From Candidatus Heimdallarchaeota archaeon (GTDB lineage: Archaea > Asgardarchaeota > Heimdallarchaeia > JABLTI01), in NCBI GenBank assembly GCA_018238155.1, contig JABCTZ010000006.1:64001-128000 (forward strand): a DNA stretch of 64,000 bases, written 5' to 3'. The notes under the pieces are model-generated. The model saw only the letters and a list, made by a program, of their open reading frames with translations. It had not been told where the DNA came from and did not search any database. Positions 6,404 to 17,206 of the stretch are shown here, piece by piece. Made by a program: the position numbers and the translations under genes. Position 1 is the first letter of the stretch; each line of letters begins with the position of its first letter.

Positions 6404-7894
6404 ACACCGGTTGATCCTGCCGGACCTGACTGCTATTGGAGTAGGACTAAGTCACGCTAGTCAAAGGTGCAGAATGGAGCACCTGGCGTACGGCTCAGTA
6501 ACACGTAGTCAACCTACCCTAAGGACGATGACAACCACGGGAAACTGTGGATAATCTTCGATAGGAAATTTGGCCTGGAACGGTATCTTTCCTAAATCCG
6601 CCTCGCCGTGAGATACGGGCCTTAGGATGGGGCTGCGGCCGATTATGCTAGATGGCGGTGTAAAGGACCACCATGGCGACGATCGGTATGGGCAATGGAA
6701 GTTGGAGCCCAGAGTCGCTAACTGAGACAAGGTAGCGAGCCTTACGAGGCTTAGCGGTCGCGAAAACTCGCCAATGCACGAAAGTGTGAGTGGGCTACTC
6801 CAAGTGTCATTCTTACGGATGACTGTCGCCCAGTATTACAAGCTGGGAAAGGAAGGAGAGGGCAAGGCTGGTGCCAGCCGCCGCGGTAAAACCAGCTCTT
6901 CGAGTGGTCAGGACGTATATTGGGTCTAAAGCGCTCGTAGCCGGACATGTAGGTTCTTGGTTAAATCCGACAGCATAACTGTCGACCTGCTGGGAATACC
7001 GCAAGTCTTGGGAGCGGGAGAGGATAGAGGTAGTCATAGGGCAGGGGTGAAATCCAGTGATCCTATGGCGACCACCGATGGCGAAGGCATCTATCTGGAA
7101 CGTCTCCGACGGTGTGGGGCGAAAGCTAGGGGAGCGACCCGGATTAGATACCCGGTTAGTCCTAGCCGTAAACGATGCCGACTAGGTGTTGCGACGGCCA
7201 AGAGCCGTTGCGGTGCCACAGCGAAGGCGTTAAGTCGGCCACCTGGGGAGTACGGTCGCAAGACTGAAACTTAAAGGAATTGACGGGGGCGCACCACCAG
7301 GAGTGAAGCCTGCTGTTTAATTGGATTCAACGCCGGAAAACTCACCTGGTCAGACTGCAGAATGAAGCTCAGGCTAATGACCTTAGCTAACTCGCAGAGA
7401 GGAAGTGCATGGCCGTCGACAGTTCGTGCTGTGAAGTGTCCTGTTAAGTCAGGCAACGAACGAGATCCACGTCTACAGTTGCCAGCGTGTCCCATCGGGA
7501 TGACGGGAACCCTGTAGAGACTGCCCGACGCTAAGTCGGAGGAAGGAGTGGGCAACGGCAGGTCAGTATGCTCCGATAGACCAGGGCTACACGCGGGCTG
7601 CAATGGTCGGTACAATGGGCCGCGACTCCGAAAGGAGAAGCCAATCCCGAAAGCCGGTCTCAGTCAGGATCGTGGCTTGTAACTCAGCCGCGTGAATATG
7701 GAATTCCTAGTATTCGTGTTTCATCAAGACACGGAGAATACGTCCCTGCGCCTTGTACACACCGCCCGTCGTTGCAACCAACTGTGTTATGGTTGAGGTA
7801 CTTGATTTAATGCGAGTATCAATACTGTGGCATGCTAGGAGGCAAAAGTCGTAACAAGGTAGCCGTAGGGGAACCTGCGGCTGGATCACCTCCT
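6404..7894 (+). rRNA. rrs: 16S rRNA (archaeal, unlinked from 23S)
   Basis: CCGGTTGATCCTGCCGGA at the start, GTGCCAGCCGCCGCGGTAA, GTACACACCGCCCGTC, AAGTCGTAACAAGGTAGCCGTA, and GGATCACCTCCT at the end. Confidence 0.99.
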
Positions 7895-8060
7895 CTGAAA
7901 TCGATTGGTCCTCAGGACCGATCTTTAGTCAATGGAGGGGAAATTAAAACCCCTTTCCAAGTTTGACTTAATAGTAGGCGTTTGTATAACCTCATGAAAT
8001 CTTTTAACTGCAGAAATAATGGGTAGAAAAAAAGCGAGTTGTGTTAGTTAGGTTGTTTTT
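7895..8060 (+). repeat. native 16S 3' trailer (repeat copy 1): two hairpins, BHB 3' strand, GCGAGTT..GTTAGGTT, T-rich tail
   Basis: Complementary to leader 6241-6283 and to CAACTCGC 6189-6196. Confidence 0.85.
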
Positions 8061-8072
8061 TTATTATTTTTT
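8051..8072 (+). terminator. T-rich terminator of the 16S transcript
   Basis: GGTTGTTTTTTTATTATTTTTT directly after the processing stem. Confidence 0.5.
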
Positions 8073-8231
8073 GATTATGAAATAAGTGTTTAAGCGTCAT
8101 TTTTCTTGTATAGTTTTCTTCTCTGTAGAACCTTTACTTTTTTTCTTAGAAAATTTGACTATTAGAGCAACAATAGCTATTTCTAGAATAACCGGGATTC
8201 CATACAGAACAAAATAGAAAATAAATGGGCG

Positions 8232-9818
8232 TTACTGTTGTTTTTTTCGAACTATGAATATGATGATAGGTATGGCAATAATTGGTATGATAACTAAAAA
8301 GGCGAAATAGCCATAATTACATTTGGTAGGTTCAACAAAAATCGCAATAAAAGCATCAGTATGATCATCAAAGAAATTACGATAAGCATTCTGCGTAGTA
8401 GGGAAATCACTTGAAAAAGTTTCACCCATTACATAGCAGCTCCCATCACTTGCAACTACAACACTGTTAGCGCGATCAGTAGAATCCCCTCCTAGGTAAG
8501 TACTCCAGAGAAGTGAACCTGATGGAGAGAACTTTGTAATAAAAGCATCATAAATACCTCCTATAGTACTATTAGAAACCCCCTGTACTGGGAAATCACT
8601 CGAGGAAGTCTCACCAACGACATAACAGCTGCCCTCACTGGAGACCGCAATATCGTAACCGCGATCCCCGTTATACCCTCCTAAGAACGTACTCCAGAGT
8701 AAGGATCCATCCTTTGCCAGTTTGACCACGAAAGCATCTCCATACCCGCCGTAGGTGTGATTATGAGCATTGTACATGGGAAAATCAGGTGACCCTGTGA
8801 ATCCAGTAATATAGCAGCTGTCATCCCCTGCTACAGCAATACCAAGAGATTCATCCCAATAACTCCCACCAAAGAAGGTACTCCAGAGTAAAGAACCATT
8901 GGAAGAGAATTTGGTTATAAAAGCATCCCAATCACCAGCATAAGTGTCGTTAATTGCATTTTGTGTGGGAAAATCAATAGAAGAAGTAAATCCTGTGATA
9001 TAACAGCTGTCATCACTTGCTACTGCAACACCATACCCCCATTCTCCACCATACTCCCCGCCCAAATAAGTACTCCAGAGGAGAGCGCCATCAGGGTCGA
9101 ATTTGGATACAAAGACATCATAACCGCCATTAAAAGTGCTATCGAATGCCTTTTCAGTGGGAAAGTTCGTGGAGGACGTCAATCCAGTAACGTAGCAACT
9201 ACCATCACTTGTTGTTGCAACACTACACCCCATATCCCAGTTATTTCCTCCTAGGTAGGTACTCCATAACAGCGTACCATTCGTAGCAAATTTACTAAGA
9301 AAGGCATCGGTAGCAACATCAATCCCACTTCCATAGGTAGCATTGTAAGCATTCTTTGTAGGAAAGTTTGAAGACCAGGTTGTCCCCGTGACGTAGCAGC
9401 TGCCATCACTCGCCACAGCTATATCATAACCATAATCTAAATCACTCCCACCAAGATAGGTACTCCAGCATAGAGTGCCATTTGCAACAAATTTGGACAC
9501 AAAAGCATCTCTACCACTATATGTATAATTGAATGCATGAAGCGTTGGGAAATCTCCTGAGGAGGTTCTTCCTGTGAGATAATAGCTGCCATCCCCTGCC
9601 ACAGCAATGCCTAAGCCAATTTCTGTTCCACCCATGCCACCAAAAAAAGTACAATACTCAAGAGTAGGCATAGCAGTCTTCTGGACTCCAAATTGAGTCT
9701 GAGGAAGTATTTGTCCACTGCCAAAATTCAGAGGAAAGGGGGAACAAAGTATTAGAATTACAAAAAGAACGCCACAAGTCCCTCTCTTGCTTCGATTGGA
9801 AAATATCGTTTGACCCAT
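8232..9818 (-). CDS. SBBP-repeat beta-propeller surface protein
   Basis: Seven repeats of WSTYLGG..D.G..IAV.SDGSCYVTG.T.S.DFP..DAF; signal peptide; C-terminal TM plus basic tail. Confidence 0.9.
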   Translation of the reverse strand: MGQTIFSNRSKRGTCGVLFVILILCSPFPLNFGSGQILPQTQFGVQKTAMPTLEYCTFFGGMGGTEIGLGIAVAGDGSYYLTGRTSSGDFPTLHAFNYTYSGRDAFVSKFVANGTLCWSTYLGGSDLDYGYDIAVASDGSCYVTGTTWSSNFPTKNAYNATYGSGIDVATDAFLSKFATNGTLLWSTYLGGNNWDMGCSVATTSDGSCYVTGLTSSTNFPTEKAFDSTFNGGYDVFVSKFDPDGALLWSTYLGGEYGGEWGYGVAVASDDSCYITGFTSSIDFPTQNAINDTYAGDWDAFITKFSSNGSLLWSTFFGGSYWDESLGIAVAGDDSCYITGFTGSPDFPMYNAHNHTYGGYGDAFVVKLAKDGSLLWSTFLGGYNGDRGYDIAVSSEGSCYVVGETSSSDFPVQGVSNSTIGGIYDAFITKFSPSGSLLWSTYLGGDSTDRANSVVVASDGSCYVMGETFSSDFPTTQNAYRNFFDDHTDAFIAIFVEPTKCNYGYFAFLVIIPIIAIPIIIFIVRKKQQ

Positions 9819-15577: not shown

Positions 15578-15588
15578 AGTTCATTTTT

Positions 15589-16904
15589 TTATTCTTCTTT
15601 ATATTTCAATTCAGGTTTATTTTTCAGTTTTATTTTTTTAGATTTCTTCAACTTCCTCACAGAAAAGATAGACATAATTATAACAATAATCAAAATAAAT
15701 GGACTTGCAATACCCATTATTGGAAGAATTAAATAGTGAAATATGAGTGGTAATTTTATTATTGGAAATTGTAGTTTAATTCTATTCTTATTTTCTATAT
15801 CAAAGATAAAAAGATCGGTTTGTGTGTCAGGGGCACCTGTCATGTAATCCTCTGTCATAACTAAAACATAGTTTTTGTACAAGAAAATTTTCTTAAAATC
15901 TAGTTCTACTATATCCTTTAGCCTATATTTACTTCTGCATTTAATTTCATCATTTTCTACTTCTAAAAGTACTAAATTCTTTGAGTTTATGATGCAAATA
16001 ATATCATCCTTAACAGCAATTGACTTTGGTTGAGCTATATCATAACTTGCAATTTTTTCCGGATTATAAGGATCGTCATTATTGAACACTTGAATTTGGT
16101 TACTTTTTAATGCATACAGAAAGTTATCCTGAAAACTTATTCTGGTATATTCTTCTTCAAATTCTTTTACTTTTACTGGTGCACTTACATTGCTGAAATC
16201 GTAGACCAACAATTTGTTGTCAATAGTACTATGATATAGAAAATTATTATGGAATTTATAATCTAGGATATCATCATATTTATAATACGGTGGATATTGA
16301 TTCCCAATCACAATTTCTGAAATATTGTGACAACCAATTAAGATTGGATTATAGATATCACTAATATTGTATATTTCACATTGAGGGACTTCATATCTTG
16401 AACCAAACAAAAAGAGATTGTTCTTTTTTTGCTCTAAACGGTGAACAAAGCTTAAATTTGTACCAATTATTTTATTAAAGTATTGATCTTTTCATTTTCA
16501 ATAAATCCAATTACACTTTGATTAACATTATAATTTCCATCCATTGCCATGAACGTAATACTGCCATTATTGTAAAATGAGAAAATATATTCATAATCAA
16601 AATATCTTACCCATTTTAATTCTTTCCATCTTTGTAATTGGGAGATATTTCTTACAAATATTGAACTTGATGAGAAGCTAACGAGAACTAAATCATTTAC
16701 GCATGTAATATCATTGCACATCTTTAACATATGATTAATACTCAGTGGATTATTATTGAAATAATTTAAACTTTCAGTTTTAGCATTGTTTTTCTCAGTA
16801 TTCATATTTGAGTAATGATTCCGTAAATCATTCATTTGAACTAAAATTATGATTATAAAAAAAAAGGTATAAATAATCCTCTTCCTACAATTCTTTAATC
16901 CCAT
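15589..16904 (-). pseudogene. LVIVD-like paralog split by a 1-nt frameshift near 16470
   Basis: ORFs 16467-16904 and 15589-16410 join as ...NTLIK/IIGTNLSFVHRLEQKKNNLFLFGSRY, collinear with the neighbour's NATLVNILTTIDLEILKLIIINDELFIFGSNDY. Confidence 0.75.
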
Positions 16905-16965
16905 TTTTCCACTCTCTTGTATTTATTTACTCTTCAAATTAATAAAATTTCTTGTAATAAGAATA

Positions 16966-16978
16966 TGCGAGTTAGGTT
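16966..16978 (+). repeat. repeat copy 8 (tail only), distal end of the array
   Basis: TGCGAGTTAGGTT followed by a long T-tract. Confidence 0.75.
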
Positions 16979-17206
16979 TGTTTTTTTCTTTTTTTGTTTT
17001 TCGTTCGAGTTTTCCTATTATTTTCAACCCAAGAACTATACTTAATATTATTATGATAAAAATAATCCTCGATTTTTATTGTTTATTTCAATCAAAAAGA
17101 GCATGCCAAATTATTATTAAAGATAGAAAGATATTCTTCATTGGGATTTATACTAGGTTTATTATCTTAGATTTTGAATTCACAAGAAATTTCCAGGTGA
17201 AAAAGT

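Follow-up and report, generated by a model that had tools for sequence, protein, structure and literature searches.

The window analyzed here, a 64,000-nucleotide stretch of a 4.08-Mb Heimdall-group Asgard genome (G000), carries the single 16S rRNA gene copy of that genome; the 23S rRNA gene does not directly follow it and is located 62 kb downstream. Downstream of the 16S rRNA gene, seven self-contained cassettes (K1 to K7) lie between repeat units (c1 to c8). The features are as follows, with the contents of K1, K3, K4, K5 and the distal flank assigned by Pfam.

6186-6196, +: 16S leader, distal processing-stem arm, complementary to the unit tail GCGAGTTGGTT (sequence, duplex calculation)
6234-6283, +: 16S leader, proximal arm with bulge-helix-bulge half AAAAGA-CATG-TAA-AGGTT (sequence, duplex calculation)
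6404-7894, +: 16S rRNA gene (Rfam RF01959, 1391 bits)
7872-8070, +: c1, true 16S 3' end and trailer (bulge-helix-bulge half AACCT-CATG-AAA-TCTTTT), tail GCGAGTTGTGTTAGTTAGGTT, T-rich terminator
8232-11015, -: K1, SBBP beta-propeller protein (8232-9818) and C13 (legumain/caspase-clan) peptidase-like protein (10017-11015)
11149-11306, +: c2, full-length displaced copy, starting 23 nt inside the 16S 3' end and stopping at GTGCGA
11353-11801, +: K2, weak Phd-like antitoxin (11353-11547) and frameshifted ParE/RelE toxin (11545-11610, 11622-11801)
~11829-11902, +: c3 (sequence, duplex, profile)
12027-12603, +: K3, DUF433 antitoxin-like protein (12027-12278) and PIN-like DUF5615 protein (12223-12603)
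~12604-12675, +: c4, left part eroded, abutting the K3 stop codon
12683-13303, -: K4, PIN-like DUF5615 protein (12683-13048) and DUF433 protein (13064-13303)
~13375-13455, +: c5 (sequence, duplex, profile)
13593-14049, -: K5, HicA toxin (13593-13850) and HicB-like antitoxin (13813-14049)
~14113-14212, +: c6 (sequence, BLAST, duplex, profile)
14256-15536, -: K6, 426-aa protein with no Pfam family
~15555-15588, +: c7, tail only (TGTGCGAGTTAGATT)
15589-16904, -: K7, K6 paralogue in two frames (15589-16410, 16467-16904)
~16956-16990, +: c8, last copy, tail only (TATGCGAGTTAGGTT) with a T-rich run
17207-19639: distal flank (Pfam, synteny), MFS transporter (17207-18508, +) and zinc alcohol dehydrogenase (18614-19639, -)

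The unit combines the 3' arm of the stem at which pre-16S is processed, including a canonical bulge-helix-bulge half, with a terminator. The duplex between the leader and c1 has a calculated energy of -59.3 kcal/mol (z -7.4), which bears out the proposal of an earlier note, made from the sequence alone, that the unit is the 16S trailer and complementary to the leader. The displaced copies c2 (-43.7 kcal/mol), c3 and c6 still form leader duplexes of -44 to -50 kcal/mol, and an nhmmer search with the unit profile matches the minus strand of the leader at 6185-6270. In a whole-genome BLAST search, c2 showed 85% identity over 149 nt (E 5.8e-37). Only the tail is kept in 8/8 units, and c7 and c8 retain nothing but this tail (TGCGAGTTAGGTT); the eight same-orientation copies described at 7872-16990 are confirmed, six of them as clear copies and two as tail only.

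The units are restricted to this locus. The 15-mer TGTGCGAGTTAGGTT, with at most one mismatch, occurs five times in 4.08 Mb, all within the array and on the + strand, compared to a chance expectation of ~0.35 by our own estimate, and a chance origin of the copies is excluded. A profile of c1 to c6 matched those six units alone (E 1e-14 to 3e-23), a scan that is circular given that the profile was built from the same units; the next-best match was the 16S leader on the opposite strand (E 0.025). No strong unit match was found outside the array in the entire genome, extending the earlier statement that the window holds no further copy, and both scans show that the motif is not a generic genome-wide terminator. 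One diverged, possible orphan unit (G000:C4:44650-44725) has a non-significant profile score. No copies of the 16S leader were detected in the genome.

Could the repeats result from the merging of several strains' 16S flanks into one contig? Regions around 16S genes are notoriously difficult for assembly and binning, and the arrays of two congeneric species (G005 and G010) terminate contigs. However, the longest exact word common to two units here is 37 nt, with the others at most 21 nt, which leaves no ambiguity in the assembly path; the array lies centrally in its 137-kb contig; metagenome contigs obtained independently bridge two to four units; and arrays are present in two genomes that match the gene content of the circularized long-read genomes of Wu et al. 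Such a chimera is almost certainly not the explanation.

The cassette contents are largely as first described, except that the ParE/RelE toxin of K2 (ParE_toxin, E 9.4e-10) is frameshifted, its Phd partner is a weak match (E 0.021), and K7 is split. K6 and K7 are paralogues with 27% identity that probably are membrane-anchored propellers; the label LVIVD-like originally attached to them lacks Pfam support. The GC content of K1 is 0.39-0.42, compared to 0.335 for the genome. The toxin-antitoxin-rich cargo is compatible with a true integron array that lacks its integrase (CALIN), with the units serving as attC sites. In addition, GTTAGGT fits the R' consensus GTTRRRY in 6/8 units, GTTTAAC or GTTCAAC fits R'' in c6 and c2, and archaeal integrons, mostly CALINs, have been reported to be enriched in Asgard genomes (PMC9668308). 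Nevertheless, this origin is highly improbable: the single-stranded DNA folds of the units (-0.7 to -4.6 kcal/mol) are no better than those of shuffled sequences (z +0.1 to +1.8 in six of seven folds, -0.5 in the seventh), the units of G010 and G005 have no R'/R'' matches, five of the seven cassettes point away from the 16S rRNA gene, IntI is absent, and the units share their ancestry with the 16S end and trailer. The attC-integron reading is already contradicted by the lack of an attC-type hairpin and of IntI and by the mixed orientation, so that the term "integron-like" applies to the outcome only.

The same architecture was found in three families of the class. Sequence downstream of 16S is available for 23 genomes of the class, of which 10-11 contain arrays, in addition to G026, where the trailer copies are located at 38-41 kb; no copies are present in G015 and G078, whose regions downstream of 16S are syntenic. 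The two congeneric species carry trailer-copy arrays with other cassettes and have in common with the window only K3, K5 and the distal zinc alcohol dehydrogenase, the first shared gene beyond the G005 array. The K5 counterpart lies between units in G005 (82.7% DNA identity), K3 homologues are present in the arrays of G010 and L075 and in contig L071, and K4 is found behind a unit with a c1-like left part in contigs from runs X1-X3. In contigs from other samples, the SBBP gene adjoins K3, K3 is followed by a full-length unit, or K3 is followed by a unit and then K1, with the tail traveling with the right-hand cassette. Relatives keep a full-length unit at the c4 junction, and the full-length left part recurs to the right of K1 and K3 in other strains and species. 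The Logan-contig joints, at 88% likeness, come from related populations whose sister-strain status is unproven. Fixed gene order among relatives was not seen; instead, cassette sets and orders differ between conserved flanks. Combined with the locus restriction of the units, this variation indicates that the 16S 3' flank behaves as a gene-collecting site, as originally suggested.

Displaced units are 84-98% identical to the trailer of their own genome, whereas trailers of different species align over only ~30 nt, which implies ongoing exchange or conversion. The full-length copies start at -14 to -30 relative to the 16S end, with one at about -130. In G012, G056 and G028, 31-nt mini-introns split the 16S rRNA gene ~13 nt before its end, near this start zone.

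The repeats, their nature, their restriction to one locus and the differing cassette sets and orders in relatives are observed; the recombination route and the enzymes involved are inferred. The array appears somewhat more probably than not, at roughly 55%, to be an additive genomic island on the 3' end of the single 16S rRNA gene, with modules shuffled by recombination between trailer copies. Each module boundary would be a copy of the last 14-30 nt of 16S, the trailer stem arm and the terminator, and exchange between copies would lead to gain, loss and re-ordering of modules. This recombination is probably homologous and perhaps break stimulated, general homologous recombination being the most likely enzymology; the variable left boundaries fit the use of homology better than a fixed crossover. 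Two routes can be envisaged: Campbell-type insertion and excision of one-unit circles, or repair of a gap in a broken unit from a donor with two units around a cassette. Because 16S is single copy, we propose that only insertions leaving the 3' end, processing arm and terminator intact beside it survive, and that selection for an intact 3' end confines array growth to the 3' side. A history in which each event left behind a displaced trailer, as first suggested, is plausible. Against the additive island counts the absence of any observed recombination intermediate, circle or empty site, and homologous recombination by itself gives no account of how a gene new to the array came by its first flanking unit.

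In principle, the modules could be decayed remnants of viruses or plasmids that inserted serially at the 16S 3' end via their own integrases, leaving deletion-resistant toxin-antitoxin pairs, some cargo and att remnants, the small cassettes themselves being immobile. Large elements bracketed by trailer copies do occupy the site (~38 kb in G026, 14.5 kb in G012 and 7 kb in G005), and the decay of K2 and K7 and the left-side erosion of units are in line with this scenario. It is unlikely, however, given that unit-bounded K1, K3, K4 and K5 recur elsewhere in different orders and neighborhoods, that no integrase remnant was found among the array proteins scanned (most frames of at least 90 aa, those of G012, G043, G070 and G041 being covered in part), and that tyrosine recombinases are wholly absent from the closed G016 genome. 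PF00589 is likewise missing from the array-bearing G012, G041 and G043, and PF00239 (serine recombinase) from G000; no integrase is encoded in the surroundings of the array, in agreement with the earlier note for the window.

A possible but less probable alternative to homologous exchange is a dedicated site-specific enzyme that would be required for cassette movement, with the trailer, most likely the conserved tail GYGAGTTNGRTT, as its attachment site. Such an enzyme could be supplied in trans by the host, a virus or a plasmid, or could be a nuclease, for instance the LAGLIDADG protein encoded in some arrays. Retention of the 15-nt tail in c7 and c8 without other homology hints at a functional core site, although K6/K7 paralogy or a promoter constraint may be the cause. 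Three independent joints in other samples lie directly 5' of TGTGCGAG, which may merely mark the end of similarity to the window, and the start zone of most full-length copies is narrow. A free-standing LAGLIDADG gene is itself a cassette in the G016 and G040 arrays, and Wu et al. (PMC8813620) proposed that a LAGLIDADG protein was co-opted for integration here. On the other side, array-bearing genomes have no recombinase family in common, the left boundaries vary, and the species-specific unit sequences would require the enzyme to co-evolve with each trailer; the array of this window contains no nuclease gene, and no homologue was found in its genus with the G016 protein as the query. Homologous and site-specific exchange predict the same junctions and are therefore not distinguished by the data. 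Under homologous exchange, double-strand breaks made by the array-borne nuclease may stimulate recombination in some lineages.

The closest precedent, a partial one, is provided by HeimM2 and HeimV2 (Wu et al. 2022, Nat Microbiol, PMC8813620). These mobile elements of Ca. Heimdallarchaeum occupy precisely the interval from the sole 16S rRNA gene to tRNA-Arg TCT, the conserved gene that comes next. The elements reported there are solitary, 8 and 44 kb long, and neither trailer repeats nor multi-cassette arrays nor small toxin-antitoxin cassettes are mentioned; the earlier view that the system is undescribed thus applies to the repeats and arrays, whereas elements at the site were known. In G016 and G026, which match these genomes in closure and gene content, we found that HeimM2 and HeimV2 are bracketed by displaced 16S end/trailer copies. 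They differ from the present array in the proposed LAGLIDADG factor.

LAGLIDADG homing endonucleases are encoded by free-standing or intron-borne genes, and homing does not normally duplicate the flank. Common to homing and the arrays are the rRNA gene setting, the copying of DNA between homologous flanks that would follow a site-specific break, the nuclease genes inside two arrays, and the mini-introns near unit starts; the usual absence of flank duplication and the nuclease-free array of the window set them apart. Integrons and CALINs (Ghaly et al. 2022, PMC9668308) resemble the array in outcome, with small toxin-antitoxin-rich cassettes alternating with recombination-site-like repeats that are related to one another and uniform in any one genome, but here the repeats derive from an rRNA flank and there is no attI/Pc. 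Like the array, the SAR11 O-chain island, which splits the rRNA genes, is a flexible, hypervariable accessory region, rich in surface proteins, that adjoins rRNA genes between conserved flanks; such islands are replaced by double crossover in the flanks, and internal rRNA-trailer repeats are not described for them (PMC7318151). CRISPR arrays are similar only in how they work, a leader-proximal reference repeat being followed by copies with unique inserts, whereas whole genes form the inserts of this array and its repeats, 35-160 nt long, have ragged left ends. Tycheposon islands of Prochlorococcus grow by tandem accretion at tRNA/tmRNA 3' ends (Hackl et al., bioRxiv 10.1101/2020.12.28.424599); in both cases, direct repeats that partially duplicate the 3' portion of an RNA gene surround each element, repeated insertion at a single site builds an island, and older repeats and elements degenerate. 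Unlike these islands, with their tRNA targets, the array has no element with a tyrosine recombinase, its modules are as small as ~0.7 kb, and the end of an rRNA gene, together with its processing-stem arm, collects accessory genes without a recognizable integrase.

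The 16S rRNA gene in the window is the only one in this 4.08-Mb, 46-contig Heimdall-group Asgard genome (G000). Its 3' end and trailer form a unit that is present in eight copies (c1 to c8), all in the same orientation, as an earlier note had claimed and as a repeat finder and alignment confirmed. Seven gene cassettes (K1 to K7) lie between the copies.

Trailer units and cassettes downstream of the 16S rRNA gene, in order (window coordinates)
6404-7894, plus strand: 16S rRNA gene
7872-8070, plus strand: unit c1, genuine 16S end and trailer
Between c1 and c2: cassette K1, SBBP propeller protein and C13 peptidase-like protein
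11149-11306, plus strand: unit c2, last 23 nt of 16S, then trailer
Between c2 and c3: cassette K2, weak Phd-like gene and frameshifted ParE/RelE gene
From about 11829, plus strand: unit c3, retaining, like c4, c5 and c6, the segment GTAGG to GCGAGTTAGGTT
Between c3 and c4, plus strand: cassette K3, DUF433 and PIN-like DUF5615
From about 12604, plus strand: unit c4
Between c4 and c5, minus strand: cassette K4, DUF433 and PIN-like DUF5615
From about 13375, plus strand: unit c5
Between c5 and c6: cassette K5, HicA and HicB-like protein
From about 14113, plus strand: unit c6
Between c6 and c7: cassette K6, paralogue of K7 (27% identical), both without a Pfam family
About 15555, plus strand: unit c7, tail (conserved right end) alone retained
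Between c7 and c8: cassette K7, split
About 16956, plus strand: unit c8, tail alone retained

Unit c2 aligns at 85% identity across 149 nt (E 5.8e-37, whole-genome BLAST). When up to one mismatch was allowed, the 15-mer TGTGCGAGTTAGGTT occurred five times genome-wide, against an estimated chance expectation of about 0.35, and all five occurrences are in the array on the plus strand. A profile of c1 to c6 retrieved no further unit from the whole genome, the next match being the 16S leader on the opposite strand. The absence of copies elsewhere in the window, noted previously, thus extends to strong matches in the whole genome, and with 15-mer and profile matches confined to the array, a generic terminator or dispersed repeat was rejected. 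No additional copies of the leader or the 16S 5' end were found in the genome; the array is one-sided. An assembly artefact is argued against by the short words shared between units (the longest exact word common to two units is 37 nt, and all others are at most 21 nt) and by the position of the array in the middle of the contig.

A diverged unit-like sequence, possibly an orphan trailer unit, is located on another contig (C4:44650-44725; L083:6650-6725), flanked by genes for a cupin and an ankyrin-repeat protein; its profile score was not significant. Adjoining it (C4:38001-52000, L083), an MFS transporter gene interrupts a gene for an M20 peptidase, separating the N-terminal from the C-terminal fragment. 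Genes of both types are also found in or beside the 16S arrays of G000 and its congener G010.

The duplex between the leader (6176-6290) and c1 has a calculated energy of -59.3 kcal/mol, compared with -26.8 +/- 4.4 for shuffled sequences. Within it, the leader AAAAGA-CATG-TAA-AGGTT pairs with the trailer AACCT-CATG-AAA-TCTTTT, yielding a 4-bp helix with one 3-nt bulge per strand, the bulges on opposite strands; as read from the sequence, this is the canonical bulge-helix-bulge (BHB) site of archaeal pre-rRNA processing. The tail of the unit base-pairs with positions 6186-6196 of the leader, and a T-rich run follows it. Together, these features identify the unit as the 3' arm of the processing stem plus terminator and bear out its initial description as a 16S trailer complementary to the leader. 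The displaced copies c2, c3 and c6 have retained good pairing with the leader (-44 to -50 kcal/mol); the duplex calculation gave no good pairing for c7 and c8.

The cargo contains type II toxin-antitoxin pairs, namely, DUF433/DUF5615 twice, HicA/HicB-like, and the frameshifted ParE/RelE with a weak Phd-like partner. The GC content of the cassettes ranges from 0.42 (K1) down to 0.275 (K6 and K7), the genome value being 0.335. The SBBP gene of K1 contains seven diverged 189-nt tandem repeats (8398-9610), which probably correspond to the blades of the predicted beta-propeller. The arrays of one family of the class, f2 (L052, L054, L057 and L045, from G056, G047, G028 and G041, respectively), encode a family of ~530-aa proteins without a Pfam match, with two or three members per array, one per cassette, resembling the K6/K7 paralogue pair; this recurrence suggests tandem duplication of cassettes through the units. 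The 23S rRNA gene (C1:134052-136836), on the same strand as 16S and 62 kb downstream of it, is cut off by the end of the contig.

The defining features of archaeal integrons are the IntI integrase and attC sites (PMC9668308), and the array had been likened to an integron. R'-like GTTAGGT (consensus GTTRRRY) is present in six of the eight units, and R''-like words (RYYYAAC) in c2 and c6 only; neither was found in the units of the congeners G010 and G005. Folded as single-stranded DNA on both strands, the units reached -0.7 to -4.6 kcal/mol, with z scores relative to shuffles of +0.1 to +1.8 in six of seven folds and -0.5 in the seventh. None folded clearly better than its shuffles, and thus, the defining attC hairpin is absent. 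The cassettes are not mostly co-oriented behind a common promoter, five of the seven being on the minus strand, away from 16S, and no IntI-type integrase was found next to the array or in the genome. After these folding and recombinase searches, the attC/integron (CALIN) reading was rejected.

The two tyrosine recombinase (PF00589) matches in G000 are on contigs C8 and C19, with none on C1, the contig of the array, in agreement with the failure to spot an integrase by eye. No PF00589 match was detected in the array-bearing genomes G012, G016 (closed), G041 and G043, and the single match in G026 lies 2.2 Mb from the 16S site. Serine recombinases (PF00239) are missing in G000 and present in all four family-f2 genomes searched (G016, G012, G041 and G043). 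Given this patchy distribution, no classical recombinase is common to the array-bearing genomes, nor did the scanned array proteins of any genome, or contig C1, yield an integrase. The only PF01867 match is the canonical CRISPR Cas1 on contig C15, and the Cas4-like matches that were followed belonged to a CDC48 gene and to an operon of Argonaute, PD-(D/E)XK and RmuC genes. The three products of this operon (C28:10041-13951; L090:1041-4951) are a 709-aa protein with a weak Piwi-domain match (E 2.4e-4), a nuclease of the PD-(D/E)XK/Cas4-like type and a member of the RmuC family. The operon looks like a prokaryotic Argonaute defence module; at E 1e-8, the Argonaute-like protein had no homologue in the other 82 genomes of the class. 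A search of IMG/VR for viral carriers with a 21-nt degenerate unit core returned no match.

A LAGLIDADG gene forms a cassette behind a displaced unit in G016 (L046:7067-7687), and its 56%-identical homologue is the first cassette behind 16S in G040 (L088:275-880), making this protein a directly testable candidate enzyme. No homologue was detectable in the genus of G000 with the G016 query, and the ten PF14528 matches in G000 are all off contig C1. A two-gene module (~270 and ~260 aa, no Pfam family, ~24% identity) occupies the first element behind 16S in G016 (L046:895-2518) and G070 (L059:2216-3809), which belong to two different families; by eye, PIN-like motifs are recognizable at both the N and the C terminus of the second protein. 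Being absent from G000, this module was rejected as a general factor.

In G012 (L051), G056 (L052) and G028 (L057), a 31-nt mini-intron splits 16S between CCTGCGGA and TGGATCACC, ~13 nt before the 3' end and close to where full-length units start. One displaced G012 unit appears to carry the intron-less junction (GGA-TGGATCACC). Another small 16S insert, further upstream, is present in G040 (L088:50-85), and 16S of G005 (L042) contains a 31-nt insert at position 1166 of the window's 16S. The idea of a large, nuclease-encoding intron at the -13 site was rejected, the long 16S genes of G033 and G063 having introns elsewhere.

Gene order behind 16S, proposed earlier as a check, proved not to be fixed among relatives: congeners and metagenome contigs carry different cassette sets and orders. 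In G010, the order behind 16S is a unit, an M20-like gene, a second unit, a K3 homologue and a third unit, which begins 16 nt within the 16S end; the contig stops there. On contig C98 of G005, units lie at 1, 7304 (start at -15), about 11482, 12128 and 12973, and between them are genes for transporters, a PPDK-like gene, a HicAB cassette and zinc-ribbon genes. Only K3 (76% identity), K5 (82.7%) and a distal flanking dehydrogenase (76.9%) are shared between the window and these congeners; these identities favor neither a horizontal nor a vertical origin of the shared cassettes. Across the class, extra copies occur within 20 kb in 10-11 of the 23 genomes with sequence downstream of 16S, in three families; in G026, copies are 38 and 41 kb from 16S, and G015 and G078 have no copies and a conserved gene order downstream of 16S. 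Displaced units are 84-98% identical to the trailer of their own genome, and trailers of different species are alignable only over the ~30-nt BHB arm. Full-length copies start 14-30 nt before the 16S end, except for one at about -130.

Upstream of 16S, the ~650-nt non-coding leader (5747-6292 and onward) is the only part conserved between G000 and G005 (window 1-6400 versus L042:1614-8000). None of the four upstream genes in the window (548, 410, 350 and 103 aa) belongs to a Pfam family or is syntenic with G005, so that the 5' flank is variable too; no repeats were found in it.

Further joints came from Logan contigs of marine-sediment runs, which sample related populations whose status as sister strains is not proven; public runs hold only small shares (0.05-0.17) of the stretch, and the uncovered parts are uninformative. 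In joint 8008>12658 (X1-X3), K4 lies directly behind a unit with a c1-matching left (16S-proximal) part, and joint 12606>7867 (X1 and X2) has 22 nt between K3 and the next unit, whose start lies 28 nt within the 16S end. In joint 9841>11884, 59 nt separate an SBBP gene 99% identical to that of the window from the c3 tail, behind which comes K3; both K2 and the C13 gene are missing there. Joint 14193>12033 places a c6-like unit ahead of K3. Among JGI contigs, L071 contains K3, a full unit, K1 and the next unit; L074, a ~0.6-kb cassette between two units; and L075, a G010-type array extended to four units. Across both sets of contigs, the JGI ones likewise from related populations rather than proven sister strains, the tail travels with the cassette to its right. 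In other strains and species, the full-length left part recurs to the right of K1 and K3.

The best-supported reading is that the array is an additive island, the modules of which would recombine through the trailer copies. We favor general homologous recombination as the route because no recombinase is shared, the left boundaries are ragged, and the units track the trailer of their own genome. Either circles carrying one unit would be inserted or excised, or a broken unit would be gap-repaired from a donor with a cassette between two units; in some lineages, a nuclease that makes breaks may be the driver. A dedicated enzyme acting on the conserved tail is a serious rival to this route. An array made up purely of decayed large elements (a graveyard) agrees less well with the data, since the same small cassettes recur in different orders. 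We think it unlikely that the pre-16S processing-stem arm is the attachment site of a dedicated integrase-free gene-capture system (a "ribosomal integron") run by an enzyme not yet recognized as a recombinase, such as the array-borne free-standing LAGLIDADG nuclease or another host factor, and common to Heimdall and Thor Asgard archaea and, by convergence, CPR bacteria.

With regard to gene flow in Asgard archaea, the end of the single essential 16S gene acts at this locus as a landing pad for the collection and shuffling of accessory genes, with no integrase found. The cargo comprises toxin-antitoxin pairs and surface proteins and, in relatives, also transporters and whole viruses. For genetic engineering of Asgard archaea, the locus suggests an insertion site that is natural and tolerated. 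The 16S gene is present in only 33 of the 83 class genomes, and in these MAGs it is often missing or at contig ends; because the contigs of G005 and G010 break inside arrays, the two phenomena may be linked.

Among known systems, an island splits the rRNA genes of SAR11 (PMC7318151), and tycheposon islands show analogous accretion at tRNA ends, with integrases (bioRxiv 10.1101/2020.12.28.424599). As in tycheposon-type islands, the array elements are flanked by direct repeats copying the 3' part of the target RNA gene; unlike in those islands, the target is the 16S rRNA gene, the window contains no tRNA, and the array proteins scanned include no tyrosine recombinase. The earlier opinion that no such system had been described holds for the repeats and cassette arrays, which full-text literature searches found nowhere else and which the part of Wu et al. 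2022 available to us (PMC8813620) does not mention, but not for mobile elements at this site. According to that paper, HeimM2 (8 kb), encoding a leucine-rich-repeat protein and a homing-endonuclease homologue, fills precisely the interval from the only 16S gene of Ca. H. aukensis to its tRNA-Arg(TCT), HeimV2 (44 kb) occupies the same site in Ca. H. endolithica, and the endonuclease is suggested to have been co-opted for integration. From closure and gene content, we infer that G016 and G026 are the genomes of these elements. The array in the window differs from the HeimM2 type in having no LAGLIDADG-type nuclease gene and, like HeimM2 and HeimV2, lies directly downstream of the only 16S gene. 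New here are the population-level evidence of re-ordering, the negative results for classical recombinases, the extension of this kind of array to three families of Heimdall-group genomes, and its tie to two published elements.
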